From the UHGV virus genome UHGV-1364187: a stretch of DNA of 64,000 nucleotides, one strand, 5' to 3'. Below are positions 1,799 through 59,625 of this stretch, one piece after another. The notes under the pieces were generated by a model. It was not told where the DNA came from. It saw only the letters and a program-made list of their open reading frames with translations, and did no database searches. Position 1 is the first letter of the stretch, and each line of letters starts with the position of its first letter. Made by a program: the position numbers and the translations under genes. This stretch comes from a virus.

Positions 1799-1805
1799 AA
1801 AATAA

Positions 1806-1838: not shown

Positions 1839-1871
1839 TTTTAATAATATCTTAAAAGGAGGTAAAAATAA

Positions 1872-3599: not shown

Positions 3600-3607
3600 A
3601 AAATAAA

Positions 3608-3642
3608 ATACATAGAGAAGATTAAATTTCTTCTCTATGTAT
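3608..3642. terminator. bidirectional rho-independent terminator between convergent genes
   Basis: 13-bp stem atacatagagaag/cttctctatgtat with T-runs on both sides. Confidence 0.7.
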
Positions 3643-3648
3643 TTTTTA

Positions 3649-5945: not shown

Positions 5946-6032
5946 ACCCCCTTTAATTACTTGTTACCCATAAAGTTTCAATTTTATATCAATAACTTTA
6001 TATTAAAATATAACATTTGGAGGTATGCTTAA

Positions 6033-8600: not shown

Positions 8601-9761
8601 AGGTCGATTTATTAAAATAGGTATACCTTGACCGTCATCTATTAAAGATTGAATAATATTTCTAACTCTTTGGTCTTCTTGAATAGTGGCATAATACCAA
8701 ATATTATGTGCTTCATCATAAGACATATTATAAGATTTTACTAAAACATTTATAATTCTCTGTTCTAATAATCCTACTAATGCAAAGTATGATAATTTTA
8801 CTTGGTCTACTTTTAATGTATCATCTGGAATGATTACACATCTAGAAGAGAAGTTAAATCTTCCTCCGAATACTCCTCTAAATATACCTTTCTTTCCAGA
8901 TAATATATTTTCAACTTCAGCATAAACTTTATTAAGTTTATATTGTAAATCGTATAATAATTGTAATTTAGGTTTCTTCTTTCTATGAATACGTAATGTA
9001 TTCATATTGATATCATGAACTAATTTTACAATCATATTATACAATCCATTAATATCGTTGAATACAAAGTTTCCACCATCAAGTTTGAATGGTCTTAATA
9101 GTGTCGTAAATATTGGTATAGAATGAGTAAATATCTTATCTTTATTCTCTAACAAATCAAGATAAGTATCAGTCTTAGCTTTCTTATTAGAAGAATTATT
9201 GTAATAATAATCTAAAACTGTTTCAAAGTTATCTCTTAACCATAATATACCTTTTCCTTTATATGGTTCATCTTTAACTTGTTTATTTTCTTCTATTGTA
9301 AATCCATCTTCATTCTTATTGTCTATTGGTTTTATGATATTATAAAGTTTCTCTGTTCCAATAATAGTCTCTAATTCTTTATATAGATTAGGATGGATTA
9401 TACAATATTCATCTTTCAATACTGTCCAACCAAATAAGTCATAATTATCATCAACAAACTTTACTTTAGTATTACATATAGGACATGTCATGCCATTATT
9501 AATTTTACCCATAGTGTAACCACATGAACATTTATATTTGTTAATGAACGGGTTAGAGTCATTTAATGTAGAACCAAATCTAGTACTAAAAATACCATTT
9601 GGTTCTTTTAAATCCTTCTTAATGTTTTGATGTTGAAAGATAATGAACCCGTTACCAGTACGAAGATCATTATCTTTCTCTTTATCCAAGTCAATTCTTT
9701 CTAGTAATGTTTCAACTTTAAATAAATTTCCAAGTTCATCTACAAGATGTGGATAATTCAT
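8601..9761 (-). CDS. rpoC: multisubunit RNAP beta-prime N-terminal fragment, exon 1 (Zn ribbon, clamp, lid)
   Basis: The Zn-binding motif CSCGY...CPIC matches the beta-prime N-terminal CxCGK..CxxC. IPIFTTLLRP matches LPVLPPDLRP, and GKKGIFRGVFGGRFNFSSRCVI matches [23 protein letters not shown]. RBS gaaggagatg. Confidence 0.8.
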
Positions 9762-9827
9762 ATTTATATCATCTCCTTCAATAATATAATATATAAGTTA
9801 ATAATAAGTTACATATACATTAATTTT

Positions 9828-10301
9828 CTAATGTATATGTAACTTATTATATTTATATTTATATTCTATAGACTTAGAATCTCTTTCTTGCTTCTTTTCT
9901 ATCCACTCTTGAACTTTATCTTTTATTTTATACTTGTTCACTAAACAACAGATTACATTATATGTGTCATTCATTGAATAGAAAAACCTAGATTTATAAT
10001 TATTATACAAATAAGATTTACTAACAAGTTGTTGAAATCTTGATAAATTATAAATACACTGTTTAAGACTATATTCACGTCTTGATATTCTTATTCTCGC
10101 TTTCTTTTCGATTTTATGTCTAAGTCTATATAAACATGTGTAAACATCACATATTTCTTCAGAAAGATGATATATATCAATTTCTTGTTCAGATAAGCAA
10201 TTTATCAATTCTGATAACTCTTCTTGCATCTTCATAAAAATAAAATCATCACCACTCATATCAGTGATACTATGTTGTAATTTTGTATCTATTAAAAACA
10301 T
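9828..10301 (-). CDS. hypothetical protein (157 aa)
   Basis: ORF immediately downstream of 10304..11236; probably co-transcribed with it. Confidence 0.45.
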   Translation of the reverse strand: MFLIDTKLQHSITDMSGDDFIFMKMQEELSELINCLSEQEIDIYHLSEEICDVYTCLYRLRHKIEKKARIRISRREYSLKQCIYNLSRFQQLVSKSYLYNNYKSRFFYSMNDTYNVICCLVNKYKIKDKVQEWIEKKQERDSKSIEYKYKYNKLHIH

Positions 10302-11478: not shown

Positions 11479-12666
11479 CTATACTACATTTTTATGTGTT
11501 CTATATTTTACAATATCACTTATAGTACTAATATTATATCCAGTACTATATTTTATTTCAGTTAGTGTCATACCCTCTTGTTCATACATTCTTCTTATAT
11601 CTCTTACAATATCATCTGTTATACTTCTTCCAGGAGCATTGGATAAATCATATTGTTCATATATATCTCTATGTGCTCTACCGCTAGTAATATTCACAAT
11701 AGTTTTTCTATTTATATCAAGATGATGTGATATCATTGTTGGAGTATATCCATTGGAAAACAATATCATTATATTATGCACATCTTCATCTGTAATCTTA
11801 GTTGGAACATAAGCATTAGATAAATCGTATTGATTTCTAATATCTAAATGTTTCTTTCCACCATATACAATATTAGTTACAGTTTTTCTATTTAAATTTA
11901 ATTCATCTGCAATCTGATATGCTTGATACCCTTGAGAATATAATCTAAATATATCATGTAAAGTATCTTCTGGAAGTAATCTTGTAACTTGATCTAATTC
12001 TAATTCTTCATATACATCTTTATGGCTAGAACCACATGATATATTTCTTACATTAACATATGAAACTCCAGTTTTTTCTGCAATTTCTTTAAGAGATAAT
12101 GTTGTATCCTTAATAAGATTACCAACTTCATAAGCTTTCTCTTTAGATATACATATAGCTTCTACTTCTGGTCTTAATTCTTCATATGAATGATGAACAT
12201 TTTCTAATGGAGTAGCCCATTCAAGATTACATAACCAATTACACCATGTACAACCATTTATATGATTGACTTGATATTGTTCTGGATTTTCTATTGGAAG
12301 AAATGTCATCATTACTAATCTATGAACAAAGTATATATGTTTCTTTCCATCAAGACATGATAATCCAACTCGTAGATATCCTTTATCTGTAGATTGTTGT
12401 TGCATGAATACATTATTAAGTAATGAGAATATTCTTCCGTAATTACTTACCATATATCTTCCAGGAACAATTTCTTCTGAATTTATAAATACAAATATTT
12501 CATCTGGAGCCATAAGTGGGATATATGTATATTCTTGTTGATAATTTGAAAATTGTTCTGGTATATAATTTGGTGGTAGTTCTTTTCCAGTCTTAGAAAT
12601 ATATGCTGGAATTATTAAATTTTTGATTTCTTGTCCTTCTTTATACTCTTTGTTTTTGTAATACAT
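11479..12666 (-). CDS. free-standing HNH homing endonuclease (NUMOD4 + HNH_3 + C-terminal helix-turn-helix repeats)
   Basis: NUMOD4-like RYMVSNYGRIFS. HNH_3 motif VNHINGCTWCNWLCNLEWATPLENVHH. Four repeats of the NLNRKTVTNIVYGGKKH / DINRKTIVNITSGRAHRDIY type. RBS gaaaggatg. Confidence 0.85.
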   Translation of the reverse strand: MYYKNKEYKEGQEIKNLIIPAYISKTGKELPPNYIPEQFSNYQQEYTYIPLMAPDEIFVFINSEEIVPGRYMVSNYGRIFSLLNNVFMQQQSTDKGYLRVGLSCLDGKKHIYFVHRLVMMTFLPIENPEQYQVNHINGCTWCNWLCNLEWATPLENVHHSYEELRPEVEAICISKEKAYEVGNLIKDTTLSLKEIAEKTGVSYVNVRNISCGSSHKDVYEELELDQVTRLLPEDTLHDIFRLYSQGYQAYQIADELNLNRKTVTNIVYGGKKHLDIRNQYDLSNAYVPTKITDEDVHNIMILFSNGYTPTMISHHLDINRKTIVNITSGRAHRDIYEQYDLSNAPGRSITDDIVRDIRRMYEQEGMTLTEIKYSTGYNISTISDIVKYRTHKNVV

Positions 12667-43055: not shown

Positions 43056-43919
43056 ATGGAAGAATTTAAAAGTGTAATTAAAAGAAATGGTAAAATTGTA
43101 GATTACGATAGAAATAAGATTAAAACTGTTGTTAGAAATAGTGGTCTTACAGATGAAGATAAATTAGAAGAATTTACATTGGAAGTTGAAAAACGACTAC
43201 TAATAGAAAATGAATCAGTTGATCATCAAGGTATATTTGATGTTGAACTAATTCAAGATATTATCATCCATCTGTTAGGACTATTAGGATATAAAAACGA
43301 ACAAAATGAGTATAAGAGATATAAGAAAGAACGAGAAAAGATTAGACAGTCTAAATCTGATTTATTAAAAGTGGTTCATTCATTAGGTGTTGAAACTGAT
43401 AGAGACAATGGGAATGTTGGTAATAACTTCAGTGCCAAGTTATTACGTATTGCTAGCGAAACAAATAAATGTACGAATCTAGCATTAAATATTCCTAAGC
43501 ATTTAGCGAAACCTCATGAAAATCATGATTACCATACTCATGATCTAGATAGTTATAATCTTACTACAAATTGTTTACATAATGACACTGGTGCTATATT
43601 AAAGAGAGGATTTAATACTGGATATGGGTGGATTAAACCACCTAAAAGAATCGAATCAGCTGCCAACCTTACATGTATTATTATTCAATCACTTCAGAAT
43701 GATTTTTATGGTGGGCAATCTTGTGTTGATATTGATAATGACCTTGGTGAATATGTAGAACCAACAAGACAAGAAATTATTGAAAGATTAGAACCTACAA
43801 GAAAATATGTACCAGAAGATGTATTCAATGATACAGTTGAAAGAATGTTAGATGAACAAATTCATCAAGCAGCACAGAATATTTGTTATAATCTTAATAC
43901 TATGCATAGTAGAGCAGGT
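43056..43919 (+). CDS. nrdD: anaerobic ribonucleoside-triphosphate reductase NrdD, exon 1 (ATP-cone and N-terminal barrel); 3' boundary +/- 6 nt
   Basis: RBS aaggaggaatt. ATP-cone MEEFKSVIKRNGKIVDYDRNKIKTVV. The exon ends ..NTMHSRAG(Q), matching E. coli ..NTLHTANGQ. Confidence 0.8.
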
Positions 43920-45077
43920 CAAGATGACTTAGCCGTGTTAGATAGAAATATCTAATATGATTATCGGGGAAATTCGGTAGAGGTCTAAGTAAGATTATCA
44001 ATTAAAAAGAAATGATGATATTTATGAATTATAATAAAACTGAAATTGAAAGATTATATTTTGAAGAAAATATGACATATGATCAAATATCTGAAATTGT
44101 AGGATGTTGTAAATCTACTATAGGAAATATTATTAGATCAAATCCAAACTATAAAAAGAAATCACAAACACTATATAGTAATCCATTATTAGATGAAAAT
44201 TATTTTGAAATAATAGATACAGAAGCAAAAGCTTATATATTGGGACTTATGATAACAGACGGGAATGTTTGTTATTATGGTGATGGATATCGTATTAGAT
44301 TACAATTAAAATATGAAGATTCTTATATTTTAGAATTCTTTAAAAATCAGATTCACTGTTCCAATAAACTTATTGTTGATAAGCGAGATGGTTCTATTGC
44401 ATTTAGTATAAAATCAGAAAAGATGTTTTATGATTTATCTAAATATGGAGTAGTTCCTAATAAAACTTTAAATAATTATGTTCCACCAAATATACATCCA
44501 ATGCTAATGCCTCATTTAATAAGAGGAATATTTGATGGTGATGGTTGGATATCAAAATCGTTTGATAAAAATGGAAAGAAACATATAGCTATTGGTATTT
44601 GTGGAAATGAAAATTTTCTTCAACAATTCAGGATATATTAGTAATAAATGCTCGAGTAAATATGAATATTATAAATTCTTATAGCTCAATTAATGAAGCT
44701 CCATTATACCAAACAATGTGGTGTTCTATTGGAGATATTATTAGATTATATAGTTATTTATACATAGGTGCTAATATATATCTATTTAGAAAATATCATA
44801 CTATAATTGATATAATTTTATATGAAAATACCGAGAGGGCTTTAATCGAAAGTCTTTGTAACGCATAGGAGTTGAACGTTATGATAGTAAAAATACTCCC
44901 AAGAGTCTCCGACACAATATACTATAGGTATATTTGAGGTGGAAATTGCTCACCACCAAACCTAACGTTAAACGAGGGTGAATATATATGCTAGGCTGGA
45001 TTGGAAATGACCAATCGATGAAAATGAGGGAAACCTCCAGAGGTCTAGATAAAAAGCTAGACGTTAATAACAGTCCG
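43920..45077 (+). ncRNA. group I intron 1 in nrdD (~1.16 kb), carrying a LAGLIDADG homing-endonuclease ORF
   Basis: It interrupts conserved HSRAGQ|VPFSS. A heptamer GGTCAAG is shared at both exon ends, so the exact junction is ambiguous. R-like CCGAGAGGGC..AUCGAAAG and UCCGACAC elements resemble those of intron 2. Confidence 0.7.
44012..44641 (+). CDS. intron-encoded LAGLIDADG homing endonuclease (double-motif)
   Basis: Motif 1 AYILGLMITDGNV and motif 2 LIRGIFDGDGWI. Located wholly inside nrdD intron 1. Confidence 0.8.
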   Translation: MMIFMNYNKTEIERLYFEENMTYDQISEIVGCCKSTIGNIIRSNPNYKKKSQTLYSNPLLDENYFEIIDTEAKAYILGLMITDGNVCYYGDGYRIRLQLKYEDSYILEFFKNQIHCSNKLIVDKRDGSIAFSIKSEKMFYDLSKYGVVPNKTLNNYVPPNIHPMLMPHLIRGIFDGDGWISKSFDKNGKKHIAIGICGNENFLQQFRIY

Positions 45078-45380
45078 AGTCAAGTTCCATTTAGTAGTTT
45101 AAATATTGGACTTCCTAAAAATAAAAATGGTGCTAGAGTATGTATGGCATTATTAGAAGAATACGATAAAGGTATGGGAAAAGGAGAACAAATGATTTTT
45201 CCTAATATTATCTTTAGATGTAAAAAAGGTATTAACAAAAATCCTAATGATCCATATTATTATTTATATGATAAAGCTTGTGATGTAGCAAGTAGACATA
45301 TGAATCCAACATTTATGAATATTGATAGTAAAATTAATATGGAGTTATGGAAAAAAGGTATTACACCTGCAATCATGGGT
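45078..45380 (+). CDS. nrdD: NrdD exon 2
   Basis: VPFSSLNIGLPKN..ARVCMALLEEY..IFPNIIF..AIMG. It ends AIMG|, completing the E. coli TPMG|CRSFLG junction. Confidence 0.75.
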
Positions 45381-45689
45381 TAACAGAAAATGTTACACGG
45401 TTTCTACAGCTCATGTAAAACCTATCTAAACAGGGAAAGCTCATAAGAGTCAATCCTGTGCTAAATTCTAATATTATATAGAATATATAATTATTTATAC
45501 ATTGTATATAGTACTAGATAAATGCCGAGAGACTATCGAAAGACTATTTTATATAGAATCAAGTAGAGTAGGATACAAGTGTATTCGAAAAGATAGGCTT
45601 AGATATTTATATTATCTATGAAGATATAGTCCGACACCTATAGTGATATAGGAAAGATTATGGAAACGATAATCTTATAACAAGAAATG
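45381..45689 (+). ncRNA. group I intron 2 in nrdD (309 nt, no ORF)
   Basis: The 5' exon ends AUGGGU (U at the splice site). The IGS GCUCAU at ~45410 pairs with AUGGGU (P1 with U.G). The R element is GCCGAGAGACUAUCGAAAG and the S element UGAAGAUAUAGUCCGACAC. The intron ends ..AAAUG (omega G), and the next exon begins UGU (Cys of MGCRTYVG). Confidence 0.8.
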
Positions 45690-46649
45690 TGTAGAACATA
45701 TGTAGGTACAAATATCAATGGTCAAGAAGGACCATCTAGAAGAGGAAATAATGCACCTGTTACTATTAATTTACCTAGATTAGGTATTAAAGCTAAAGGT
45801 GATTTAAATAAATTCTGGAGTTTATTAGATGATATGCTTAATTTATGTAAAGAATCTTTATTACATAGACATAGTATATTATGTAAACTTAGAGTAAAAG
45901 ATTTACCATTTGCTGCAGGAGAAGGTATTATGATGGGTTCAGAAAATCTTGGACCTGATGATACTATCGAACCAATTCTTAAGAACGGAACATATGGAAT
46001 TGGATTTGTAGGTTTAGCTGAAACATTAGTAGCATTAATTGGTAAACATCATGGTGAATCTAAAGAAGCTGACGAATTAGGATATAAAATTGTAAGTCAC
46101 ATTAGAGAATATTGTGATAAAACTAAAGAAGAGACACATCTTAATTTCTCATGTTACTATTCACCTGCTGAAAGTACAGCTGGAACATTTGCAAATGCAG
46201 ATAGAGAAAAATATGGTATTATTAAAGGAGTTACTGACCATGATTTCTATACAAATTCTGTTCATATTCCAGTGTATTATAATATCTCTATTAAAGATAA
46301 GATTGATATTGAATCTAAATATCATTATTTAGGAAATGGTGGTCATATCTTTTATGTGGAAGTTGATGGATATCCATCTAAAGAACAAATTAAGAAAATT
46401 GTAGATTATGCGTTTGATCAAAGTGATATTAGTTATATGGGAATTAATTTCCATATTAGATATTGTAAAAAATGTGGTAAACGTGTAACGAATAATGTTA
46501 TGGTATGTGATTGTGGAAGTACAGCTTTCCAAGGTATTAGTCGTATTACTGGATATTTAGCCCTAGATGGAAGATGGGGTCAAGGAAAAGTTGCAGAAAG
46601 AAAAATGAGAGTATCGCATACTACAGGTAAAAATGTATATACAGAATAA
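45690..46649 (+). CDS. nrdD: NrdD exon 3 (C-terminal half, with Zn ribbon and glycyl-radical loop)
   Basis: CRTYVG..NNAPVTINLPRLGIKAKGDLNKFWSLLDD matches E. coli CRSFLG..NNLGVISLNLPRIALEAKGDEATFWKLLDE. Also GVTDHDFYTNS, CKKCG..CDCGS, and the glycyl-radical motif RITGYL. Confidence 0.85.
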   Translation, partial: CRTYVGTNINGQEGPSRRGNNAPVTINLPRLGIKAKGDLNKFWSLLDDMLNLCKESLLHRHSILCKLRVKDLPFAAGEGIMMGSENLGPDDTIEPILKNGTYGIGFVGLAETLVALIGKHHGESKEADELGYKIVSHIREYCDKTKEETHLNFSCYYSPAESTAGTFANADREKYGIIKGVTDHDFYTNSVHIPVYYNISIKDKIDIESKYHYLGNGGHIFYVEVDGYPSKEQIKKIVDYAFDQSDISYMGINFHIRYCKKCGKRVTNNVMVCDCGSTAFQGISRITGYLALDGRWGQGKVAERKMRVSHTTGKNVYTE

Positions 46650-47043: not shown

Positions 47044-47072
47044 ATAAAAACTTATAAAGGAGAGTGTTTTAT

Positions 47073-47405
47073 ATGATTAAAGAGATTAAGATTGGTGGAA
47101 TTAGAAGAACAAGATGTGGGTATTATATCTTAAATATTAATGGTGATAATATTTGTTATATCTTTGATGATTCAGAACGTTATAATAAGATTATTATGTA
47201 TAGAAATATTGAAGATATTCCTTCATTATTATCTATTAAAAGTTCTGGAACTAATATTATTTCTATTAAAGGTATAGCTATAAATACAAAGAATAAAACA
47301 ATTATAATACAAACAAAAACTAAAACATATTGTATTAAACCAAAAGAACATAATAAATTAACATTTGAAGACATGTATGAAAGATTAGAAAGGATGTGTA
47401 AATAA
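47073..47405 (+). CDS. small protein, paralogous to the N-terminal domain of the NrdG fusion protein
   Basis: Starts MIKEIKIGG after aaaggagagtg and shares MIKEI...EDIPS...GIAINTK..I.QT...YE.L.R with residues 1-110 of the next gene. The ORF-track start is a GTG 9 nt upstream. Confidence 0.5.
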   Translation: MIKEIKIGGIRRTRCGYYILNINGDNICYIFDDSERYNKIIMYRNIEDIPSLLSIKSSGTNIISIKGIAINTKNKTIIIQTKTKTYCIKPKEHNKLTFEDMYERLERMCK

Positions 47406-48235
47406 TGATTAAAGAGATATCACAATTCACAATTAAACTTGTAGAAAAAGACACATATGGAGAGACATATAATGTTCTTAATAGAAAGGATATTACAATA
47501 TGTACTCTATATAAATCTAAATTAGGAACAGTTAGAGTATATTTATCAGAAGATAAATATGTTAGTGTATATGTATTTGATGAAGATATACCATCTATAG
47601 ATAAACTCATTACTGGTATTGCGATCAATACAAAAAGAAATAATATTATACTTCAAACTAATGAAAGAATAATTTCATTTAGACAAACTGATAGTGTATA
47701 CGAACAACTTATGAGATATGTTTCTAATTCATATAAATTACAAGTTGCAGGATTTTATGATAATAGTTCAGTTAATGGACCTGGATTAAGATCTGTTTTA
47801 TTTGTATCTGGATGCAAGTTTAATTGCCCAGATTGTCAAAATAAAGAAGCTCAATCTATGACCTATGGAGATAAAGTGAGTGTAGGTGAAGTTGTAAAAA
47901 GAATTAAATCAAATATCCCAATTATAGATGGCGTTACATTAAGTGGTGGAGAACCAACGTTACAATCAGAAGCATTATTAGATTTAGTAAAAGATTGTAA
48001 GAAGTTAGGTTTAAATGTTTGGATGTACACTGGAGATAAATATGAAAATCTTATGAAAGATCCAGTAAAATCTAAATTAGTTAAATCAGTTGATGTATTA
48101 GTAGATGGAAGATATGTAAAAGAATTAAATGATCCTAATCTATTGTATAGGGGAAGTTCTAATCAAAGAATTATTGATGTATCTAAATCTACTGTAGATG
48201 ATATTGTATTATGGGATGAAAGTGAGGACTTTTAA
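47405..48235 (+). CDS. nrdG: anaerobic RNR activating protein NrdG (radical SAM) fused to a ~110-aa N-terminal domain of unknown function
   Basis: Residues ~112-276 are VNGPGLRSVLFVSGCKFNCPDCQNK (CxxxCxxC) ... GVTLSGGEPTLQ ... VWMYTGDKYENL ... VLVDGRYVKELNDPNLLYRGSSNQRIID, collinear with E. coli NrdG. RBS gaaaggatg at the first ATG. Confidence 0.8.
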   Translation: MIKEISQFTIKLVEKDTYGETYNVLNRKDITICTLYKSKLGTVRVYLSEDKYVSVYVFDEDIPSIDKLITGIAINTKRNNIILQTNERIISFRQTDSVYEQLMRYVSNSYKLQVAGFYDNSSVNGPGLRSVLFVSGCKFNCPDCQNKEAQSMTYGDKVSVGEVVKRIKSNIPIIDGVTLSGGEPTLQSEALLDLVKDCKKLGLNVWMYTGDKYENLMKDPVKSKLVKSVDVLVDGRYVKELNDPNLLYRGSSNQRIIDVSKSTVDDIVLWDESEDF

Positions 48236-49557: not shown

Positions 49558-52500
49558 ATGGCACAAAGAACAAGTTTAACAAAATATGCAAAGAATTTAG
49601 TAAAATCAACTAAATATGCTACTGTTGATGTTGTAAAGGAATTAATGCCAAGTGCAACAGATTTTATGGAAACAAATAATGAATTATTTAAAGATATTAC
49701 GTCTAATATACGTAATAGACGTGTTATTTTTAAAAGAGTAAACGATAAAGTTACTCAATCAAAAATCTATGAAACTGTAGATGAAGCTAGAAAAAATATC
49801 ATAGAAGATATAAAATCTGGTAATTTATATAACAAAGATCCAATCAGAGAAAGACGTATTAATAAAAAATCTGGTATGGAGAGTATGTTAGGTGGATTTG
49901 ATGATTTTAGTGATTTTGAGTTTGAAATGGATGATTCATTCGAATTTGAAGATAGTGATAATGCCGAATTAGCTGATGCTTTTGATGATTCTAATAGAAC
50001 AACATCAGAAATGATCGCTAATACAATTGCAAAAACATCATCTAATCAGATCCAATCACAAAGAATATCAAGCCAGATGACAATGATGCAATTACAAGAA
50101 GGATTTACATTAGTAAATTCAAATCTTGGTGGAATAGGTAATGCTATTTCTGAATTAGGGAATACTATGTCATCTATTCAACAAACTAATGCTGAAAATG
50201 CAAAAACTTATTACGAAAAATCTACTGACTTGCAAGCTAATATGGTATCATATCTTAAAGAGTTAGTAGATATGAAAAAATCTGAAATGGGATTAGATGC
50301 TAAGAAAGATACATCTCGTGGACCTAAATCATATAATGACATAACTACATATGAAGGTATGCCTGATCTTAGAGCATATGGTAATATATTAGCTAGTAAA
50401 TTAAATGATAATTTATCAATGATTACAGGTCTTAATGAAATGGGTATCGAAGGTGGAAACATGTCAATGCAATTTGCTATGTCACCACTTGCATTTCTTC
50501 CTAAGATGGTTGTAAAGAAGGTTATGGGAGTAGCTGTTCAAAATTCAGCAAAAGCTTTAGATAATACATTATCAAATATATTTGGTACATTCATATCTGC
50601 TATGAATGATATGGCTGATAATTCTGGATATATGTCAATAAAAGGAATGATAGGACGATTCTTTGGTTTAAATGACACTGTAAAAGATGAACGTAGTATA
50701 AGAACAGACTATGATAAAGGAAATAAATCATGGAATGGTAAAGCCGAAAAAGCATTAACTGAAGTAATTCCTACATTAATTTCTAAAATTTTAGCTGTAG
50801 TATCTGGAGCAAATGAGATGACATATAACTACGATAATGGTAAATTTACTACAGTAAAACAATTAAGACAAGATGTAAAAAATAGAACTACTAATGAAAT
50901 GAATAGTGCATTTTATGATATAAGAAATAAAATGGACGAAATGATGAGATCTATTAATTTTGATTTTTCTGATGAAGACACTAAAGCATCATTTGAAAAA
51001 GATTATAATAGATTCTTTGAATATTTCTTTAAATCTAATAATAGATTTAATCCAAATAAGAAAAACTATGAAGATTATGATGGTCTTGGTATTGATAGAG
51101 GTAATTTTGAAATTATATCTACATTGTTTGAAAGACTAGATCCATCATTAAAAATGTCTATGGATAGTAAAAAAATAAGAGCTAGAGGTGCTATTAATGA
51201 TTATATTGATAAATTAGGACAGAATAGTCCAGTATATACTATCCTTAATAATGATTCAAAATTAACAGATGTCGATAAATCTGTAGATGGAAAATCTGGA
51301 GGGTTATTAACAGCATCTAAAGATTCATTAGGACATGACATATTCTGGTTTTTGGATAATATTCTTAAATCTATTAGAGATTTAAATCCAGATTCTGAAT
51401 ATAATGTAAATGGAAAGAAACGTAAAAAGAAAAGAACTAAAAATATAACTTCAACTCCTATTGTTCCATCTTCAGATAAAACATCTTCTGCTGGAAATAG
51501 GAAGAGATATGTTAGTCCAGATGCTCTTACTGCAGAATCTATATTATATAATAGAGCAGAGGGTACTACTATATCTGGTATTATTAATAATAGATTGGAT
51601 ATTGCTGACGAACAGAGAAAATTGGAGGAAGAAGAAAAAACATCTATTATTGATGATTTATTAGACTCACCATCTTTACCAGCGAAAGCTAAAGCTTTCA
51701 TGAAAAGAATGAAATCTACTAAAGAAGGTGCTAGAAATGGTATATCTGGACTTTTAGATACTGTAAATCTTAAGATATATCAAGCTATGTATGGTAATAA
51801 AAAATATAAAGGTAAGGATGTAAATGGTATTATAGGAGTAATGATGGAAAATATCGAAGAATCATTCACCAAGTTCAATACATTCTTAGATGAAAAGATC
51901 TTATCTCCATTGAAAGAAAAGTTAGATGAACAAGGTGGAATTAAAGGTATTCTTAAAAACACATTAGGAATAGATGTTGATTCTATTAAAGAAAGATTCT
52001 TTGGTAAAGATACTCTTTTTGGTAGAACTGTTCAATCTATTAAAGATAATTTTAAATCTGCTTATGAGTATTCTAAAGGAGCTGTAAAAAACACATACAA
52101 TGAAATCTATGATAAATTAGGTGGAAATAGATACAATAGTAGATTCAATCGTGTAATGAACACTATTAAATATGGTAAGAAAAATACACAAGGTATGTTT
52201 ATTGTAGATTCAGATGGACAACTTAATATACTTAATCAAGTAAAAAAAGTTAAACCTTCAAATGTTACAGAAGATGGAAGATTAAACACTCAAGAAGAAG
52301 CTTCATCTGTTATGGAAGGACAAATGAGTTTCTTACCAAAAGACGAACAACAAGCTATAAAAGAAGCTGCAAATAATATGAATGTTCCAGTAGAAAATAT
52401 TGCAGATGCAATCAATAAAGGTAATATCGAAAAATATGCTAAAGGTGGAAATATTCATAAAACTAAAATTGTTATGGTTCATGATGGAGAAGAAATCATT

Positions 52501-55500
52501 ACCAAAGAAGAAAAACGTAAGAGAGATAGAGAAAGAGCTTATGATCTAAGAGTTAAAAATAACATAAATAAACTAAATACTGAAATGAGCGAAGATTTTG
52601 TTGGGCCTTTACCTTTAAAAGATCAAAAAATAAAAGATTTCTTATCTGGAATTAATGAAGAAAACCTTGGAACTATTAAAGATTCTTTAGGAAAAGATTT
52701 TAAAGCTACTACTGTAGAAACTTTAAGACAGGAAATTATAGAAGCTGTTGGTCATAAAAAAGGTGATCCTACATTAATGGAAACCATGAAAGACACTGCA
52801 TCTGATGGAATAAATAAAGTAATGTCAGTGTTATTTGGTACAGATGAAAATGGTGATGAAAAAGCTGATGATCTTAAAGAACGTGGAAAAGCTGCAATGA
52901 AAGATATTATGGGTAAATTTAAAGAATATCTCCCATCTGGAATATCTGGTGCATTAATTGGTACTCTAGCTGGTGGTGTTGTTGGTATGCCTATGATTGG
53001 TGCAGCATTGGGTTCATCTATTAATCTTATTAGAAAATCAGATAAACTTCAATCATATTTATTTGGAGATTTAGATGAAGAAGGTAAGAGAATAGGTAAT
53101 GGTAAACTTCCAACCAAATTTGTAGATGCTATGAATAAATATGGTCCAGATATGAAAAAGTACGGTATTACAGGTGCAATTACATCTATTTTACCTTTTG
53201 TTCCTGGTGGTCCTGTTGCTGGATTATTATTAGGAGCAGGTGTTGGGTTTGCTAAAAATAACGCTAAAGTACAAGACTTCTTATTTGGAGATATGGGCAT
53301 ATTAAAAGGTCTTAAAGGTAGTGGTGAGAAATTAAAGAAAGCTTTACCTAAAATGGGTCTAGGTGCGGCTGCTTTAGCATTAACTGGTCCATTCGGTTTA
53401 CTTGGTAATGCTATGCTTGGTGCTGGTGCAGGATTTGTTACTCAAACAAATAAATTCCAAGAATTTATGTTTGGTAAAGATGGTAAAGATAAAGATGGTA
53501 ACCCTATTAAAGTTGGTGGATTTTTACCAATGATTAGGGATAGAGTAATCAACCCTATTAAAGAATTTGGTTCTACATTAGGTGATAAAGTTAAAACTTT
53601 TGTAGATGAAGAAATAAGAAAACCATTTCATAAAGCAATGAGTCCATTTATAGAAGAATTTAAATACCAAGGTAAGAGATTGTTTGATGGTATAAAAGAT
53701 TCTATCAGTGGAGCTATTAATAATGTATTTGAAAAGTCAGTTGGTAAACCATTAAATGAACTTATCGAAGATAAGATTGTAAAACCAATTACAGGATTAT
53801 TTAAGAAAGTATTTAACTTTTTAGGAGGTATTGTTGGTGGTATTCTTAAATTCCCTACTAAAATCATGTCAGGAGCTGCAGACTCTTTAAGAATTAAACA
53901 TTTAAAACAAGGTCGTGCTGATTATATGTCTGATGAAGAATTAGGTGAATTAAAAGAAAAGAAACCATTTGATTATTTAATGGCTACATCAGGACAACGT
54001 TTCATAAATGCACTTAATGAACGTGGTTTATTTGGTTCTATGAAAGATTTATTTACTAGAGATAAAGATGAAGTTGTTACTGACGAGGAATCTGTTAAAG
54101 AAAAGAAACCTACATTCAGAGAAAAAGTATCAGGAATAGTAGCTAAAGGTTTAGATTCTTATAATGCTAAAAGATTAGCTATTACAGAAAGAGTATCATC
54201 TGGGTATGCTAATACTAAAGAAGAATTAAGAAATGCTAAACAAAATCTTAAAACAAAAGCTTATCAAGCTGCAATGAATGCAACAGATAAATTATCAGCT
54301 AGTATTGAAGCTGGTAATAGGTATTCTAAAGTTTCTTCTTATAGGGAATCAGAAACAGAAAGCGAGGGAGACTCGACTGGTTCTTCAGAGAAGCGTGTTG
54401 ATCTTAGAACTAGAACACCTAAAATTAAATCTGTAAAAACACAAAATGTAAGTTTAGTAAATCCAGAAGTTGATGCTTTGAAACAACAAGTAAAACAATT
54501 AACCACCGAGCTTGCAGTAATGCAAAAAGAAAAAGAAGAAAATAAAGATACATCTTCAGACAAATCATCAGAATATATCAAAGATATAAGAGATGAGGTT
54601 AGAGGGCAATTAGATGGAGTTGGATACAATATCCATACGATTGCTAATATACTAGTAGAACAATTCGGTATGCCTAAGATTAAAGCTACAGGTGCTAAAG
54701 TATCTCGTGGAAATCTTAAACGAAAATTATGGTTTGAGAGAATGTTTGGATTTATTCTTAATCCTGTTAGAAAAGTTAAAGATAGTATTCATAATCTATT
54801 CTGGGGTAAAGATGGTAATGGTGGTTTATTAGGCACTCCAATGAGATGGGTTAAGAAAGGATTTGAAAAAATAGGTAATATTGGAACATTAATTGGAAAA
54901 GGATTAGCTGGTATACTAAATATTGGTTCAGGTATTGTTCATGGACTTGGTATATTAGGTGGTATCTTTAAAGAAAGTTTAGCTGCAATAGCTCCAGCTA
55001 TTGGAAGTTTATTAAAAGGTGCAGTTAAAGTATTAACGTTACCTATCGATTTATTATCAGGTGCAATATCAGGTCTTGGTAATATGCTTGGTGGATTAGC
55101 TAATGGTATTGGTATTCTTGCTGGAAAAACTATTGAACTTGTTTCTTTAGTTCCATCATTAATTACTAATATTGGTAAACTGACTATTGAAGTTGGTAAA
55201 TTTGCATTCAAATTAGTTAAGAAAGGTGCAGAACTTATAACAGCTCCAATAAGATGGATGGCTAATGGTATTATTGATATATTTAGAGGAAAAAATAAGA
55301 AAAATAAAAAGAAAGAAATCAAGCATATTATAGAAGGTGGTTTCTTAGATAAAATCAAAGAACCTATCGATATTAGTGGTGAACAAGATAGACATGATAA
55401 ATTATTATCTTTCTTTGATGATAAATTTAATAAATTATTTGATTTATTAAGTGGAACTGATAATAAAAAGAAATCTATTACAAATAATATTACTAATAAA

Positions 55501-58500
55501 GAAGAAATAGAAGAAGATAAACCAAAATTATCTACTGAAGAATTACAAAAGATGTCATTTAGTGATTATATTAGATCTGGTCAAAGTATGTCTCTTGATG
55601 ATTTAGAAAGATATGCAGACGCAAGAAAGAATCTAATGACTACTGTTAAAAAACCAGAACAACCTGCTAATAATGGAGATGTATTGAAAAAATCTTTATA
55701 TGATATTATCAATGATAATAGAGCAGGAATGAAACCATCATATGATAAACCACTAAATGTTCAAACTGAAGAACAAATTAATATGCCTACTGAATTTGGT
55801 GTTATTAGATATGATAAAGATACTTCTGGTGAATTAAGACCAGTACAAGACTCAGTGTATACTCAGTATAAAGAAAATCAAGATAATCTTGCTGAACACA
55901 ATTCAAAAATGTTCAATCTTCTTAATACTGGAGATGCAGAGGATGACGGTAAATCTACTAAGAAAGAATCTTGGATTTCTAAGATTGCTAAAAATATTGG
56001 TAGTGTATTAATGGGTGGTACTCTTCTTAAAGTTGTTGGTGCAGGTTTAATGGCTGGTGCTGTATATGATCTAGCTAAGAATGGAGAAAATTCATTTGTT
56101 GGTAAATTTGTTTCTTTCTTTAGTGATAAAGTTTTACCAAAAATAGTAGATTTTACAATAAATACAGCAATTCCAGTATTAACAGATGCATTACTTTCTC
56201 TGTCAGAAATGATATTAGATAGAGTTACAAATCCACAAAAATATTCAAATCCAGATCATGAATTATCAAAAGCTAATGCGAAAGCTAAACTCAGTGATGG
56301 ATCTTATATTACTGATGATGGAGTTTATGATAAAAATGGTAATTGGATAATGCAATCATATACACCTACCACAACTGGTTCATTAATAGAAAAAGGTTGG
56401 AATAAAATAGCTGGAAATAAAATAGAATCATGGGCAAAAGATACATTCGGTGAGAATTCAATAGGAGCTAGATTATTTTCAACAAATGTATTATCAACAA
56501 CTATAGATGATAAAGAGATAGAAAATGTTTCTCATAAAAATTCAGAAACAACAAAAACTAATAAAAACAAAGAAGAAACAATGTCAGATAGTGAGTTCTT
56601 TTCTAAAGCTATATTTGGCAAAGGTAAAAAGAAATATGGTCTAGGTGAATCATTCTTCTCACAAAATGATCCTAGATGGAGTAATTTACCATTTAATACT
56701 GAAAATGATACAGAAGCTCAAACTATTGCAGATTCTGGTTGTGGTCCAACAGCCGCAGCTATGGTAGCTGATCAATACGGAAGAGCTAATCCAGTAGAAG
56801 CTTCAGCTTTCGCTTTAAATAATGGATATAAAGAACAAAATGGTGGTACTGATCCTAGATTCTTTAAAGATTATTTCAATAAAAAAGGTATTGATAGTGA
56901 TATTGATACAGATATTGATACTAATTCTGATAAGAAATTATCTATTATTAATAATCTTAGAAAGAATAAACCTGTTGTATTAATGGGTAAATCTAAAGGT
57001 GGTAATACACCATATGGTAAAGAATATCCACATTATGTTGTAGCTACTGGAATGAGAGGCGACAAGATTCAAATTAATGATCCCAACTCTAATCATGGTG
57101 GAGAATTATACGATGCTAATGATACACTTAGATCTTCAACTATAAGCGTAAAAACTGGCAGAGGTAAGAAATCTAAATATGGTAGAGTAAATATGCAAGC
57201 TATGCTTGACACAACAATGAATGTTGCTGGAGCTGTATCAGGTGCAGTTATGCCTACATCTAGTACATCATCAGTAGCTAGAACGGTAACAAATAACTTC
57301 AGTAGTGCTAGTGGATTTGCAACATCATCAGATGGATCTTTAACAGAAGGTAAAAGTGCACTTAATTTCGTAACAGATTTAGGTACCACATTTACTAAAG
57401 CTATCGGTGAATTCTTTGGTGTTGATATGTTTTCTAGTAATACTGCTAGTAGAGATGTTGGTTCCTATGGTTCTATGGGAGGTTCTGTACAAGTAGGTAC
57501 GGCAGGTCAATGTTTTGATGCTAACGTTGCAGCTCAAGTTATCAATGATTTCTTTAAAAATAGTCCTAAACTTAGTGGAAAAGGTGCTACTATTGTATCT
57601 ATTGCTCAACAAGCTTGTCATAAAAGTGCTAATGGACAAAATCCTGGTATTGATCCATTCATTCTTGCAGCTATTATGATGCAAGAAACAGGAGGAAATT
57701 CTAATGCATTAAATAACAAGAATAACCCTGGTGGTGTTAAGGGAAGTAATGGATTACAAGTATTTAGTACAATTGAAGATGGTATTATGGCTGTTGCTAA
57801 GATTATCCATAGAGAATGGGTAGTTAATGGTAATAGCAGTATTGCTGGATTAGGTAGTATTTATTGCCCAGTAGATGCTGCAGATGATCCTAATGGATTA
57901 AATAAAAACTGGGTTGGAGGAGTAACCAAATTCTATAACCAGTTAGTACAAGCAGCTATAGCTGCAGGAGGTTTATTAGGTACTTCTGATAATATGGCTA
58001 TTAGTAATATGGGAACAGCTAATAATGTTGCAATACAAATTGTACGAATAGCTAAATCATATATAGGCAAAGTTAAATATGTATTTGGTGCAGAAACTCC
58101 AGATAAAGGTGTATCTGACTGTTCTGGATTTACTCAAGCTGTATATAGAAAAGTAGGTCTTGCTATTGGTAGAAATACTGAAGCACAAATTACTAATAAA
58201 AATATTGTAAAAGTTAGTGATTCATACAACTTTAAAGCTCAACCTGGTGATTTAATATTCTTCAAAAACACTTACAATTCTGGATATATTTATGGTGTAT
58301 CTCATGTTGGTATTTGTACTGGAGAAGGAACAAAATTTATTGAATGTAATAGTAGTAAGGGTGTTTGTGTAAGTGATTATACTAGTAACTATTGTAAGAA
58401 ATATTTCTTAATGATTAAACGTCATACTGCATGTGTCGACAAGAATGCTATGTATAAGACATCTCAAGCACAACAAACTGCTAAAAAAGCAAATACTACA

Positions 58501-59625
58501 ACTGCAACAACTACTACTAAATCAAATGATCCACTTAAAAATGCTAATAACGCTATTAATTCAAAAAATGCAACTTACAATGCATATAATACCCTTTCAG
58601 GAAAAGGTAAATCAAAAGATATTAGATATAACTCTGATATTAAGAAACCATCTAAGAGAATTAATAGAACTGTGTCTAGTAATAATGATTATTTAGAAGA
58701 AATAAATTATGGTAAAGGAATTGGAAAAGTAAACTTAGAAAAACTTAAGAAATTACCAAAAGTTCAAAAATTAATTTCAGAAGAGTTATCTAAAGCTGTT
58801 AAGAACAAGTCAAAAACTCCAGTATCTACAGCTGCAGCAAAAGTATATGCTAAGCTTAAAGCTTCTAAATTTACTGATGTAACAGATTCTGAAGGAAATT
58901 ACATTGATTTCGTTGAACTTGAAAGAAACAATAATGCTACTCCTATTGTTGATGGTAAATTAAACTTAAGAGAATTTGATGCTGATGGGAAATTAATCGA
59001 TTGGGATGCTGTAAATGAGAAGAATGGTGTTGTTACAAAACAGGATGATACTCCAGTTATTGGAGAAGCTAATCCTATCTCTACAGTATTAAATACAATC
59101 TATAATAAACTTACAGGGAATAATCAAGATACTGCTAAGAAAGAAGATCTTGATTCTGAAGGTAATAAAATAGATTGGAATGAAGTTGAGAAGAATAACA
59201 ACATCGAGGTTAAGATTCCTACTAATGCTTCTCAATTAACAGATCAACAATTGAAGAAGAAAGAAGCTGAGAATAATACTACTCAAACTAATACGACATC
59301 TACAAACAATAATACAAAAGAACAACAGCAAATTGAGGCTCAACAAAAAGCTGTAGAAGCTAAACAAACTCAAGTTGATAATCAATTGACTGCATTAACT
59401 AATATAGCTAAATCTGTAGAGAGTATTTATAACTTAATATTATTATTAGTAAATAATGGTATAGATATTAAGAACTTAGCTGAAATTCTTAAAGCTATTG
59501 GTGTATCATCATGTGATGGAGGAAGCAATAATGCGTTCTTTATTCCACAAAATAATACACAATCATCAGATGCCCATAATGCCGATATGGAACTTCTAAG
59601 TAAACTTAAAGAAATAGCTAAATAA
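49558..59625 (+). CDS. giant (3355 aa) tape-measure-like virion protein with C39-like peptidase, GH73-like glucosaminidase and NlpC/P60 peptidase domains
   Basis: RBS gaaaggaggtaatctatATG. Gly-zipper TM segments typical of tape-measure proteins at about 52890-53420 (GISGALIGTLAGGVVGMPMIGAALGSS, LPFVPGGPVAGLLLGAGVGFA, GLGAAALALTGPFGLLGNAMLGAGAGFV). C39-like DSGCGPTAAAMV...PHYVVATG at about 56640-57160. GH73-like ILAAIMMQETGGNSNALNNKNNPGGVKGSNG at about 57480-57950. NlpC/P60 VSDCSGFTQAVY...SHVGIC at about 58020-58430. Confidence 0.7.
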   Translation: MAQRTSLTKYAKNLVKSTKYATVDVVKELMPSATDFMETNNELFKDITSNIRNRRVIFKRVNDKVTQSKIYETVDEARKNIIEDIKSGNLYNKDPIRERRINKKSGMESMLGGFDDFSDFEFEMDDSFEFEDSDNAELADAFDDSNRTTSEMIANTIAKTSSNQIQSQRISSQMTMMQLQEGFTLVNSNLGGIGNAISELGNTMSSIQQTNAENAKTYYEKSTDLQANMVSYLKELVDMKKSEMGLDAKKDTSRGPKSYNDITTYEGMPDLRAYGNILASKLNDNLSMITGLNEMGIEGGNMSMQFAMSPLAFLPKMVVKKVMGVAVQNSAKALDNTLSNIFGTFISAMNDMADNSGYMSIKGMIGRFFGLNDTVKDERSIRTDYDKGNKSWNGKAEKALTEVIPTLISKILAVVSGANEMTYNYDNGKFTTVKQLRQDVKNRTTNEMNSAFYDIRNKMDEMMRSINFDFSDEDTKASFEKDYNRFFEYFFKSNNRFNPNKKNYEDYDGLGIDRGNFEIISTLFERLDPSLKMSMDSKKIRARGAINDYIDKLGQNSPVYTILNNDSKLTDVDKSVDGKSGGLLTASKDSLGHDIFWFLDNILKSIRDLNPDSEYNVNGKKRKKKRTKNITSTPIVPSSDKTSSAGNRKRYVSPDALTAESILYNRAEGTTISGIINNRLDIADEQRKLEEEEKTSIIDDLLDSPSLPAKAKAFMKRMKSTKEGARNGISGLLDTVNLKIYQAMYGNKKYKGKDVNGIIGVMMENIEESFTKFNTFLDEKILSPLKEKLDEQGGIKGILKNTLGIDVDSIKERFFGKDTLFGRTVQSIKDNFKSAYEYSKGAVKNTYNEIYDKLGGNRYNSRFNRVMNTIKYGKKNTQGMFIVDSDGQLNILNQVKKVKPSNVTEDGRLNTQEEASSVMEGQMSFLPKDEQQAIKEAANNMNVPVENIADAINKGNIEKYAKGGNIHKTKIVMVHDGEEIITKEEKRKRDRERAYDLRVKNNINKLNTEMSEDFVGPLPLKDQKIKDFLSGINEENLGTIKDSLGKDFKATTVETLRQEIIEAVGHKKGDPTLMETMKDTASDGINKVMSVLFGTDENGDEKADDLKERGKAAMKDIMGKFKEYLPSGISGALIGTLAGGVVGMPMIGAALGSSINLIRKSDKLQSYLFGDLDEEGKRIGNGKLPTKFVDAMNKYGPDMKKYGITGAITSILPFVPGGPVAGLLLGAGVGFAKNNAKVQDFLFGDMGILKGLKGSGEKLKKALPKMGLGAAALALTGPFGLLGNAMLGAGAGFVTQTNKFQEFMFGKDGKDKDGNPIKVGGFLPMIRDRVINPIKEFGSTLGDKVKTFVDEEIRKPFHKAMSPFIEEFKYQGKRLFDGIKDSISGAINNVFEKSVGKPLNELIEDKIVKPITGLFKKVFNFLGGIVGGILKFPTKIMSGAADSLRIKHLKQGRADYMSDEELGELKEKKPFDYLMATSGQRFINALNERGLFGSMKDLFTRDKDEVVTDEESVKEKKPTFREKVSGIVAKGLDSYNAKRLAITERVSSGYANTKEELRNAKQNLKTKAYQAAMNATDKLSASIEAGNRYSKVSSYRESETESEGDSTGSSEKRVDLRTRTPKIKSVKTQNVSLVNPEVDALKQQVKQLTTELAVMQKEKEENKDTSSDKSSEYIKDIRDEVRGQLDGVGYNIHTIANILVEQFGMPKIKATGAKVSRGNLKRKLWFERMFGFILNPVRKVKDSIHNLFWGKDGNGGLLGTPMRWVKKGFEKIGNIGTLIGKGLAGILNIGSGIVHGLGILGGIFKESLAAIAPAIGSLLKGAVKVLTLPIDLLSGAISGLGNMLGGLANGIGILAGKTIELVSLVPSLITNIGKLTIEVGKFAFKLVKKGAELITAPIRWMANGIIDIFRGKNKKNKKKEIKHIIEGGFLDKIKEPIDISGEQDRHDKLLSFFDDKFNKLFDLLSGTDNKKKSITNNITNKEEIEEDKPKLSTEELQKMSFSDYIRSGQSMSLDDLERYADARKNLMTTVKKPEQPANNGDVLKKSLYDIINDNRAGMKPSYDKPLNVQTEEQINMPTEFGVIRYDKDTSGELRPVQDSVYTQYKENQDNLAEHNSKMFNLLNTGDAEDDGKSTKKESWISKIAKNIGSVLMGGTLLKVVGAGLMAGAVYDLAKNGENSFVGKFVSFFSDKVLPKIVDFTINTAIPVLTDALLSLSEMILDRVTNPQKYSNPDHELSKANAKAKLSDGSYITDDGVYDKNGNWIMQSYTPTTTGSLIEKGWNKIAGNKIESWAKDTFGENSIGARLFSTNVLSTTIDDKEIENVSHKNSETTKTNKNKEETMSDSEFFSKAIFGKGKKKYGLGESFFSQNDPRWSNLPFNTENDTEAQTIADSGCGPTAAAMVADQYGRANPVEASAFALNNGYKEQNGGTDPRFFKDYFNKKGIDSDIDTDIDTNSDKKLSIINNLRKNKPVVLMGKSKGGNTPYGKEYPHYVVATGMRGDKIQINDPNSNHGGELYDANDTLRSSTISVKTGRGKKSKYGRVNMQAMLDTTMNVAGAVSGAVMPTSSTSSVARTVTNNFSSASGFATSSDGSLTEGKSALNFVTDLGTTFTKAIGEFFGVDMFSSNTASRDVGSYGSMGGSVQVGTAGQCFDANVAAQVINDFFKNSPKLSGKGATIVSIAQQACHKSANGQNPGIDPFILAAIMMQETGGNSNALNNKNNPGGVKGSNGLQVFSTIEDGIMAVAKIIHREWVVNGNSSIAGLGSIYCPVDAADDPNGLNKNWVGGVTKFYNQLVQAAIAAGGLLGTSDNMAISNMGTANNVAIQIVRIAKSYIGKVKYVFGAETPDKGVSDCSGFTQAVYRKVGLAIGRNTEAQITNKNIVKVSDSYNFKAQPGDLIFFKNTYNSGYIYGVSHVGICTGEGTKFIECNSSKGVCVSDYTSNYCKKYFLMIKRHTACVDKNAMYKTSQAQQTAKKANTTTATTTTKSNDPLKNANNAINSKNATYNAYNTLSGKGKSKDIRYNSDIKKPSKRINRTVSSNNDYLEEINYGKGIGKVNLEKLKKLPKVQKLISEELSKAVKNKSKTPVSTAAAKVYAKLKASKFTDVTDSEGNYIDFVELERNNNATPIVDGKLNLREFDADGKLIDWDAVNEKNGVVTKQDDTPVIGEANPISTVLNTIYNKLTGNNQDTAKKEDLDSEGNKIDWNEVEKNNNIEVKIPTNASQLTDQQLKKKEAENNTTQTNTTSTNNNTKEQQQIEAQQKAVEAKQTQVDNQLTALTNIAKSVESIYNLILLLVNNGIDIKNLAEILKAIGVSSCDGGSNNAFFIPQNNTQSSDAHNADMELLSKLKEIAK

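Follow-up and report, generated by a model that had tools for sequence, protein, structure and literature searches.

Two predicted group I introns in nrdD of an AR9-like gut jumbo phage

The nrdD locus and its three exons

The 64,000-nucleotide (nt) stretch of the viral genome UHGV-1364187 analysed here (the window) carries an anaerobic ribonucleotide reductase gene, nrdD, at positions 43056-46649 of the plus strand, in three exons and two introns; all features of this locus given below lie on that strand. In the public record the gene calls consist of three NRDD fragments and two small open reading frames (ORFs). One in-frame ATG lies at 44988, within the 3' domain of intron 1, and another at 45687, where the last three bases of intron 2 form the AUG of AUG↓UGU (the arrow marks a splice junction throughout), and gene callers start separate NRDD fragments of 131 and 320 aa at these two positions.

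Exon 1 (43056..43919, 288 codons) encodes the ATP-cone and the N-terminal part of NRDD, ends in ...HSRAG and has U43919 as its last base; in the ORF listing its open reading frame runs over 43056-43922. Exon 2 (45078..45380) contributes 101 codons (SQVPFSS...TPAIMG), and exon 3 (45690..46649) a further 319 codons plus the stop, beginning with the Cys of the conserved MGCR(T/S) motif and giving an NRDD match of 323 bits in Pfam. The three pieces match positions 1-156, 157-252 and 264-562 of the Pfam NRDD model without overlap, and the spacers of ~1.16 kb and 309 nt hold stops in the exon frames. Once joined, the exons encode a Clostridia-like NrdD of 708 aa, ~60% identical to its closest homologs and aligned without gaps over both junctions to 120/120 of them. 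The exon frames therefore rejoin into a continuous protein that covers the Pfam model, and exon homology and the core helices described below support the proposal of a first-pass annotation that nrdD carries two group I introns ~300 nt apart.

The gene for a radical-SAM activase of the NrdG type is intact downstream, at 47405-48235. The locus was assembled in five gut-metagenome contigs, one of them of 256,505 bp, from at least four samples (ERZ27229639, ERZ2661433, ERZ2661206 and SRR2192801 hold this phage); the contigs differ by 0-1 base and thus carry no population signal. Elsewhere in the window lies an RNA polymerase beta-prime gene that, though diverged, matches the non-virion polymerases of AR9/PBS1, phiR1-37 and Staphylococcus jumbo phages.

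Group I cores show the order P3-P4-P5-P4'-P6-P7-P3'-P8-P7', with P3 and P7 interlocked, and subgroup IA is recognised by additional helices located between P7 and P3'. One such helix (P7.1) is present in intron 1 and two (P7.1 and P7.2) are present in intron 2. It is very probable that the nrdD gene of this AR9-like gut jumbo phage is split by two independent, canonical, self-splicing group I introns of the IA type; that both are spliced, and autocatalytically so, we infer from the sequence. A match to the Rfam group I model had been suggested as a check, and none to Intron_gpI (RF00028) was obtained for either intron. The Rfam 15 scans, of the whole window at the gathering threshold and of 43700-45900 at E ≤ 10, gave only chance matches, and since the controls, the td intron of T4 and the introns annotated in AR9, were missed as well, this result says little about the nrdD introns.

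Boundaries, fold and endonuclease gene of intron 1

Intron 1 occupies 43920..45077 (1158 nt, in keeping with the previous estimate of ~1.16 kb) and is of the type found in the gyrA gene of phage AR9, called family A here. Its ends were placed from homologous proteins, from an intron-less allele and from the 3' tail of the family. The closest NrdD proteins read HSRAGSQVPFSS in 120/120 cases. A join from 43919 to 45078, which keeps the Ser of this motif, was gapless in 120/120 homologs, whereas the join given in the first-pass annotation (HSRAGQ↓VPFSS) drops the conserved Ser and was gapped in 120/120; the correct junction is HSRAG↓SQVPFSS. Two related contigs, L261 (ena:ERZ27303229:k141_1783200) and L262, whose nrdD has 78-88% DNA identity to that of the window and a different intron set, are without intron 1, aligning to 43701-43918 and then going straight on at 45078. 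Their junction reads GCTGGC-AGTCAAGTTCC, thus placing the start of the 3' exon at AGU, and the identity of L261 starts exactly at 45078 (87.6% at the DNA level in exon 2, 85% in exon 3). Family members end with a G located 4-7 nt past (G/A)UAAUAAC. The last base of exon 1 is U43919 and that of the intron G45077; the junction is GCAGGU↓AGUCAAG (protein HSRAG↓SQVPF), and the spliced sequence with the Ser kept would be GGUAGUCAAG. An example of a synthetic intron-less target sequence is AATACTATGCATAGTAGAGCAGGTAGTCAAGTTCCATTTAGTAG.

With its ends at 43920-45077, intron 1 shows the canonical U at position -1 and a terminal G, a combination that had been said to be unattainable by any placement in a repeat shared by both ends. 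The supposed oddity arose because an E. coli/T4-type junction (NGQ) had been used, whereas the Clostridia-type NrdD has AGSQ; the unusual splice nucleotides are an artefact of the misplaced boundary. The end had also been described as ambiguous within a shared GGTCAAG heptamer. The direct repeat is, however, only the hexamer GTCAAG (43918-23 and 45079-84), preceded by G in one copy and by A in the other, and the ends are fixed by the homologs and by L261.

An intron 1 bounded inside this repeat would yield a protein with HSRAGQVPF, a junction of GGUCAAGUUCC and a non-canonical nucleotide at the 5' or the 3' end. Such a placement would make use of the hexamer found at both intron ends, and T4-type NrdD, which reads NGQTPF, is also without the extra residue. 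We nevertheless regard it as extremely improbable, as 120/120 of the closest homologs keep the Ser between G and Q and leave a gap at the HSRAGQVPF join, the intron-less relative has its 3' exon start at AGU, and a placement with canonical U and G exists. The repeat may instead reflect the pairing of the guide sequence CUUA (43928-31) first with the CAAG at the intron start and later with the CAAG of the 3' exon.

The guide region and P2 lie at 43928..43955. Besides the pairing of CUUA with the intron-start CAAG, the segment GCC(G)UG (43932-37) would pair with the exon sequence GCAGGU, bringing U43919 opposite G43932 in a U.G pair. P2 is predicted by minimum free energy (MFE) folding as UUAGAUA-GAAA-UAUCUAA (43938-55), with a GAAA loop. 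Directly 5' of it, GCCGU is kept across family A members, and their exons end in GGU.

For the core, the 5' strands of P3 (UCGGGGA, 43964-70) and P4 (UCGGU, 43974-78) were paired by RNAalifold, with compensatory changes, to UCUCCGA at 44906-12 (P3') and ACCGA at 44830-34 (P4'), respectively. The 3' side of the core (44830..44912), defined by covariation counts, comprises P4', the P6 hairpin GGGCUUU-AAUCG-AAAGUCU (44837-55), the P7 5' strand, the co-varying P7.1 hairpin GGAGU...ACUCC (44868-99), the junction CCAAGAG and the co-varying P3'. It is followed by P8 and the P7 3' strand (44913..44991, also by covariation); P8, CAC...CCU/AGGGUG at 44913-80, has two inserted hairpins; pairing in its outer part reaches 92.7%, and compensatory changes are seen there too. 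P7 itself (GCAUA/UAUGC, 44863-67 and 44987-91) is 100% paired and exists in four co-varying versions in the family: GCAUA/UAUGC in 57 members, GCGUA/UACGC in 23, GACUA/UAGUC in 12 and GAGUA/UACUC in 3, the third being essentially the R/S pair of td. An exact P7 complement was found upstream of the 3' strand in 87/95 members, in the same context among the members listed. The 3' domain (44996..45077) contains P9 (CUG/CAG), P9a (GAUUGG/CCAAUC), a GAGG-GAAA-CCUC hairpin and P9.1 (GUCUAG/CUAGAC), the helices spanning 44996-45062, and a tail, GUUAAUAACAGUCCG, that leads to the terminal G45077; its fold has a z of -4.2.

Covariation was assessed on two sets of family A sequences. In the 3' halves (n = 50, non-redundant), with a structure made up of P7, P7.1, P8, P9, P9a, the GAAA hairpin and P9.1, 98.4% of positions were paired, against 30-43% in slid controls, and 21 pairs showed compensatory changes. 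With the 26 full-length ORF-less members plus intron 1 of the window without its ORF, RNAalifold alone predicted the long-range helices P3, P4, P7.1 and P9; when P7 was added as a pseudoknot, 94.4% of the cells were paired and 27 pairs had compensatory changes. Over both sets the slid controls reached 30-44%.

These pairings move the R and S elements that the first-pass annotation had drawn in intron 1: AUCGAAAG is the loop plus 3' strand of P6, and UCCGACAC is the 3' strand of P3 plus the start of P8. The corresponding candidate, GGCUUU/AGAGUC, which can be drawn in the layout of intron 2, was rejected because UCUCCGA is the co-varying 3' strand of P3; family covariation and homology to td (UAACGACUA / AUAUAGUC, 12 members) put P7 at GCAUA/UAUGC.

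The 3' end of intron 1 (44975-45071) is 88-90% identical by megablast to those of the gyrA introns of AR9/PBS1, BpSp and phiR1-37, which have ...GGU↓ at the 5' splice site and end as ...G↓ a few bases past GUUAAUAAC. The AR9/PBS1/phiR1-37 introns share with intron 1 the guide GCCGU next to P2, a GNRA-capped P2, the P3/P7 pseudoknot, the CCA(A/C)GAG junction and a 3' domain with 86-90% identity over 86-97 nt, and they too belong to jumbo phages with multisubunit RNA polymerases. They differ in the host gene, gyrA instead of nrdD, and in their ORFs: the AR9 copies have none and phiR1-37 has one in the P1 loop, whereas the window has a LAGLIDADG gene in P5. The AR9 gyrA coding sequence (CDS) is annotated as a three-piece join, with the two introns of AR9/PBS1 ~110 nt apart. 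A family A 23-mer, GAAAATGAGGGAAACCTCCAGAG, occurs once in the window and was found exactly in at least 120 IMG/VR contigs, including Bacillus, Yersinia and Clostridium phages and crAss-like phages (loci L010-L129). No Rfam 15 family matched the near-invariant 3' domain (44996-45062). By these sequence comparisons, intron 1 belongs to a large and very widespread family of phage group I introns that includes the gyrA introns of AR9/PBS1 and phiR1-37, and covariation strongly supports its P3/P7 pseudoknot core.

Some features of intron 1 fit less well with a canonical group I intron. P1 is weak: its pairing with the exon amounts to three base pairs, it includes a C.A mismatch, and its loop has only 4 nt. 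MFE folding prefers a register in which U43919 is paired to A and not to G; because this register is shifted, the placement of the splice site rests on protein homology and the intron-less allele and not on P1. P10 is poor and forms only with an offset of 2-3 nt. The short P5 of the family (GGC/GCU) is not kept in the window, where by eye the 3' strand GCU reads GAA. An extended P5 made of the paired flanks of the ORF, with the ORF in its loop, is moderately supported, this pairing only moderately beating shuffles (-10.6 vs -5.4 ± 2.1 kcal/mol). It replaced a local hairpin, GGUCU/AGAUU, that had been considered as P5.

The MFE preference against the U.G register, the weak P10, the degenerate P5 and the frameshift in the LAGLIDADG endonuclease/maturase gene described below could mean that intron 1 self-splices poorly, and that a protein helper is needed or nrdD is partly or wholly inactive. 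This is unlikely, as every core helix that covaries in the family is intact in intron 1, the exons are undamaged, and so is the downstream nrdG; moreover, assemblies of at least four samples gave the identical sequence, which shows a phage in circulation. Self-splicing of intron 1 remains the preferred reading.

The endonuclease gene of intron 1 is broken in two. Its 5' fragment (44012..44641, 209 codons) encodes an N-terminal helix-turn-helix and both LAGLIDADG motifs, LGLMITDG and IRGIFDGDG, and ends in TAG TAA TAA. This ORF stops ~30 codons past motif 2, and the other ~75 codons continue in the -1 frame as far as 44868, in a 3' fragment (44618..44868) that holds the called ORF 44662-44868 and overlaps P4', P6 and P7. 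Hence, of the double-motif LAGLIDADG enzyme claimed for intron 1, both motifs were found in 44012-44641, but the ORF is incomplete and no intact frame runs across the two half-domains. The protein of the window is borderline against Pfam LAGLIDADG_3 (22.6 bits vs a cut-off of 22.5), with its homologs above the cut-off. D83/G84 and D175-G178 are invariant in the alignment, and the family profile matches the structure of a LAGLIDADG enzyme, PDB 2DCH, at E 1e-8, and I-DmoI weakly. When the two fragments are fused by a -1 shift, the resulting 285-aa reading has 35-45% identity over 85-94% of its length to homologs of 270-330 aa and keeps the conserved C-terminal ...D..........YLY..A..YL.RK.

The break lies at an A4T4 run that contains A_AAU_UUU (44611..44617), formally a -1 slippery heptamer. 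Full-length enzyme could accordingly be made at a low, controlled level by programmed -1 frameshifting at this site: the break coincides exactly with a heptamer that has, formally, the canonical X_XXY_YYZ pattern and stands in the correct frame, the reading obtained after a -1 shift can be aligned to full-length homologs, unbroken over 44611-17, and the same frame break is present in 5/5 assemblies carrying the locus. No stable structure was predicted 3' of the heptamer (-3.6 vs -5.7 ± 2.3 kcal/mol for shuffles), though, and among the homologs listed nearly all are single ORFs of ~250-360 aa. A4T4 runs are also prone to frameshift mutation by replication slippage, and homing endonuclease genes usually decay after their fixation. 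Programmed frameshifting is thus very improbable here; if true, it would be a dosage control of a homing endonuclease, which to our knowledge has not been described for these enzymes. The endonuclease gene of intron 1 is probably decaying and dead, judging from its frame. As the ORF is a frameshifted fragment, its 44012-44641 product is unlikely to cleave, and the cleavage assay proposed for it would probably fail.

Intron 2 and its relatives in phage nrdD genes

Intron 2 (45381..45689, 309 nt) is an ORF-less, td-like group I intron (family B), which aligns along its full length to the introns of T4 td, T4 nrdD and FelixO1-type nrdD. The first-pass annotation had described its 309 nt with a complete P1, R and S elements and an omega-G, and its junction as AIMG↓CRTYVG; both descriptions were upheld, with the intron ending exactly at G45689. 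P1 consists of AUGGGU (45375-80) and the guide GCUCAU (45409-14), with U45380.G45409 at the splice site; it has 6-8 bp, and MFE folding agrees with it. Directly 5' of this guide lies the P10 guide CUACA (45404-08), which pairs with UGUAG and had gone unmentioned before. The R/S core is GACUAU / AUAGUC, and splicing at AUGGGU↓UGUAGA would give the protein AIMG↓CRTY.

The remaining helices are P3 (45421-27/45591-97), P4 (45430-35/45454-59), P5 (45439-50), P6 (45467-70/45515-18), P7 (45531-36/45626-31), P7.1 (45544-56), P7.2 (45571-86), P8 (45600-18), P9 (45637-52) and a last hairpin at 45654-76. In 13 relatives of intron 2, td included, P7, P7.2 and P9 were 100% paired with covariation, and the motif AAGAUAUAGUCCGACAC was found exactly in at least 120 viral contigs. 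In L261, P6 of intron 2 contains a 190-aa HNH ORF in place of the 34 nt found in the window (45472-45505); intron 2 of the window has lost the endonuclease gene, or never gained one.

The closest counterpart by position is the nrdD intron of FelixO1-like phages such as JohannRWettstein (CDS bas63_0067), which is inserted at the same point, after the GGU of MG and before the UGU of CR. That CDS is annotated as a two-piece join with a homing endonuclease gene inside. Both introns read ...AUGGGU↓UAACAG... at the 5' side and ...↓UGUAGA at the 3' side, use the same P1 guide, GCUCAU, and have the same td-like core, with 62% identity over 252 aligned core positions. They differ in the P10 guide (CUAUA in JohannRWettstein, CUACA in intron 2) and in the endonuclease ORF, which FelixO1-type introns carry in P6 and intron 2 of the window does not. 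The FelixO1-type NrdD is only ~30% identical to that of the window, and its gene has no intron at the site of intron 1.

The T4 td and nrdD introns are the classic self-splicing phage introns, and group I introns in phage nrdD genes have been known since T4. Intron 2 aligns to both from P1 to P9 with 58-59% identity; the loops of P7.2 and P9 match and their stems co-vary. The guide hexamer GCUCAU is also shared with the nrdD intron of T4, which is the only one in that gene, has a GIY-YIG gene near its 3' end and is also known as sunY (I-TevII). It is inserted at AYE↓YEVNTLF and matches neither site of the window: the intron 1 site lies ~11 codons and the intron 2 site ~110 codons further downstream.

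The in-frame ATGs just upstream of exon 2 (44988) and exon 3 (45687) would allow another arrangement in which nothing is spliced, the locus being either an nrdD pseudogene or a source of separate polypeptides that assemble, as in phage genes split by homing endonuclease genes. This is highly improbable. Each of the two intervening sequences contains a complete group I core and a guide that matches its own exon end, one of the splits would come immediately before the codon for the Cys in the conserved MGCR(T/S) motif, and in FelixO1-type phages the same intron, at an identical site, is annotated as spliced out. Splicing of nrdD as one three-exon gene is therefore preferred.

Intron families and optional insertion sites

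It had been suggested that both nrdD introns and the intron of the beta-prime gene represent a single proliferating family. This does not hold for intron 1, which is of the AR9-gyrA type; intron 2 and the beta-prime intron are both td-like and share with each other only class-wide core motifs. Between introns 1 and 2 there is a single weak local match (E 0.015), which links P4'-P6 of intron 1 to J6/7-P7 of intron 2, and the octamers that they share sit in different helices. Exact copies of AAGATATAGTC and GTAGAGTAGGATA in the window are confined to intron 2 and the beta-prime intron, which have collinear stretches with 74-80% identity (best E 5e-5) and 45% identity overall. These two are not recent copies, and the window holds members of at least two intron families.

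The beta-prime group I intron lies on the minus strand at 8113-8510 (398 nt), just upstream of the ADFDGD motif of the non-virion RNA polymerase gene, and has a td-like core, GUUCAACGACUAUCGAAAG ... GAAGAUAUAGUCU. Homologs read LNRNPTIS at this place. Only a junction at LQR↓EPTISYGS combines U(-1) with a terminal G, splicing then falling after U8511 with G8113 as the terminal G; P1 (ACGU/GCGU) and P10 (GCCU/AGGU) were drawn by eye only. In L261, which lacks intron 1 and has the intron 2 with the HNH gene, nrdD carries an extra intron between the positions equivalent to 43700 and 43701 of the window, and this intron is 78% identical over 130 nt to the beta-prime intron of the window. Related introns therefore occupy different genes in this phage group.

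Other contigs have introns at or near the same nrdD sites; locus L263, a contig of 0.76x coverage with many frameshifts, was left out. In L264 (logan:SRR13377817_6664, ~1250-4712), a group II intron (RVT ORF; GUGCG...CUAU) is inserted at NTMH↓SRAG, and another td-like intron lies exactly at the intron 2 site of the window (MG↓C). Family A introns are present at HSRG↓GNQ in L083, L026 and L099, and in L083 (~9380-10178) a td-like intron stands alongside. L004 (IMGVR_UViG_2872351278_000001) contains, at 5713-5999, an ORF-less family A intron 1 nt downstream of the intron 2 site, with the ends AUGGGGU↓...UUUG↓GUCGU and matching P1 (GGGGU/GCCCU) and P10 (GUCGU/ACGAU); a different intron family thus uses almost the same insertion point as intron 2.

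Multiple splitting of nrdD has been reported for the 'Jug' gut jumbo phages, where group I introns divide the gene into up to four fragments and splicing was seen in metatranscriptomes (Sci Adv 2026, PMC12880540). Like the window, these are gut jumbo phages with an nrdD that group I introns and homing endonuclease genes break up several times; they form a separate lineage with genomes of 360-402 kb and predicted Bacteroides/Phocaeicola hosts, whereas the phage from which the window derives is AR9-like, has 256 kb and encodes an NrdD of the Clostridia type. The nrdD locus described here adds to a known kind, given the group I introns of phage nrdD genes known from T4 and the multiply split nrdD genes already reported in jumbo phages.

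Three further features of the window were recorded. A 395-aa ORF on the minus strand (11479-12666), flanked by two ORFs without a Pfam match, has HNH_3, NUMOD4 and several helix-turn-helix matches, typical of a homing endonuclease. NrdG has an N-terminal extension of ~120 aa (47405-47800) that resembles a small ORF just upstream (47064-47402), with 34% identity over 61 aa and E 5e-6 in a single comparison; a domain of unknown function seems to have been duplicated locally. A single ORF of 3355 codons, at 49558-59625, follows the nrdDG region on its downstream side.

In the mechanism that we propose, nrdD would be transcribed as a single pre-mRNA in which each intron folds into its P3-P9 core and uses its internal guide to bind the closing bases of the exon before it, so that the final U comes to lie in a U.G pair. 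Attack after this U would be by an external guanosine, and the freed exon would then attack after the terminal G of the intron. Splicing at GCAGGU↓AGUCAAG and AUGGGU↓UGUAGA would give the mRNA for the 708-aa NrdD, which would work with the NrdG encoded downstream. Intron 1 may once have been moved by the LAGLIDADG homing endonuclease encoded in its extended P5 loop, whose gene is now frameshifted and probably dead, and intron 2 would be, by its site and guide, the counterpart of the FelixO1-type nrdD intron with its endonuclease gene lost.

For annotation, the locus would be read as one three-exon nrdD encoding 708 aa instead of fragments, and a standard Rfam scan overlooks both of its introns, as it does the td intron of T4. 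Across related phages, three sites in this gene vary in whether they carry an intron, which makes nrdD a clean example of the homing cycle, with one endonuclease gene apparently decaying and another lost. Unrelated intron types, from two families of group I and from group II, insert a few codons apart in nrdD. This intron pattern agrees with existing knowledge of ribonucleotide reductase genes, to which it contributes one more data point but no new principle.

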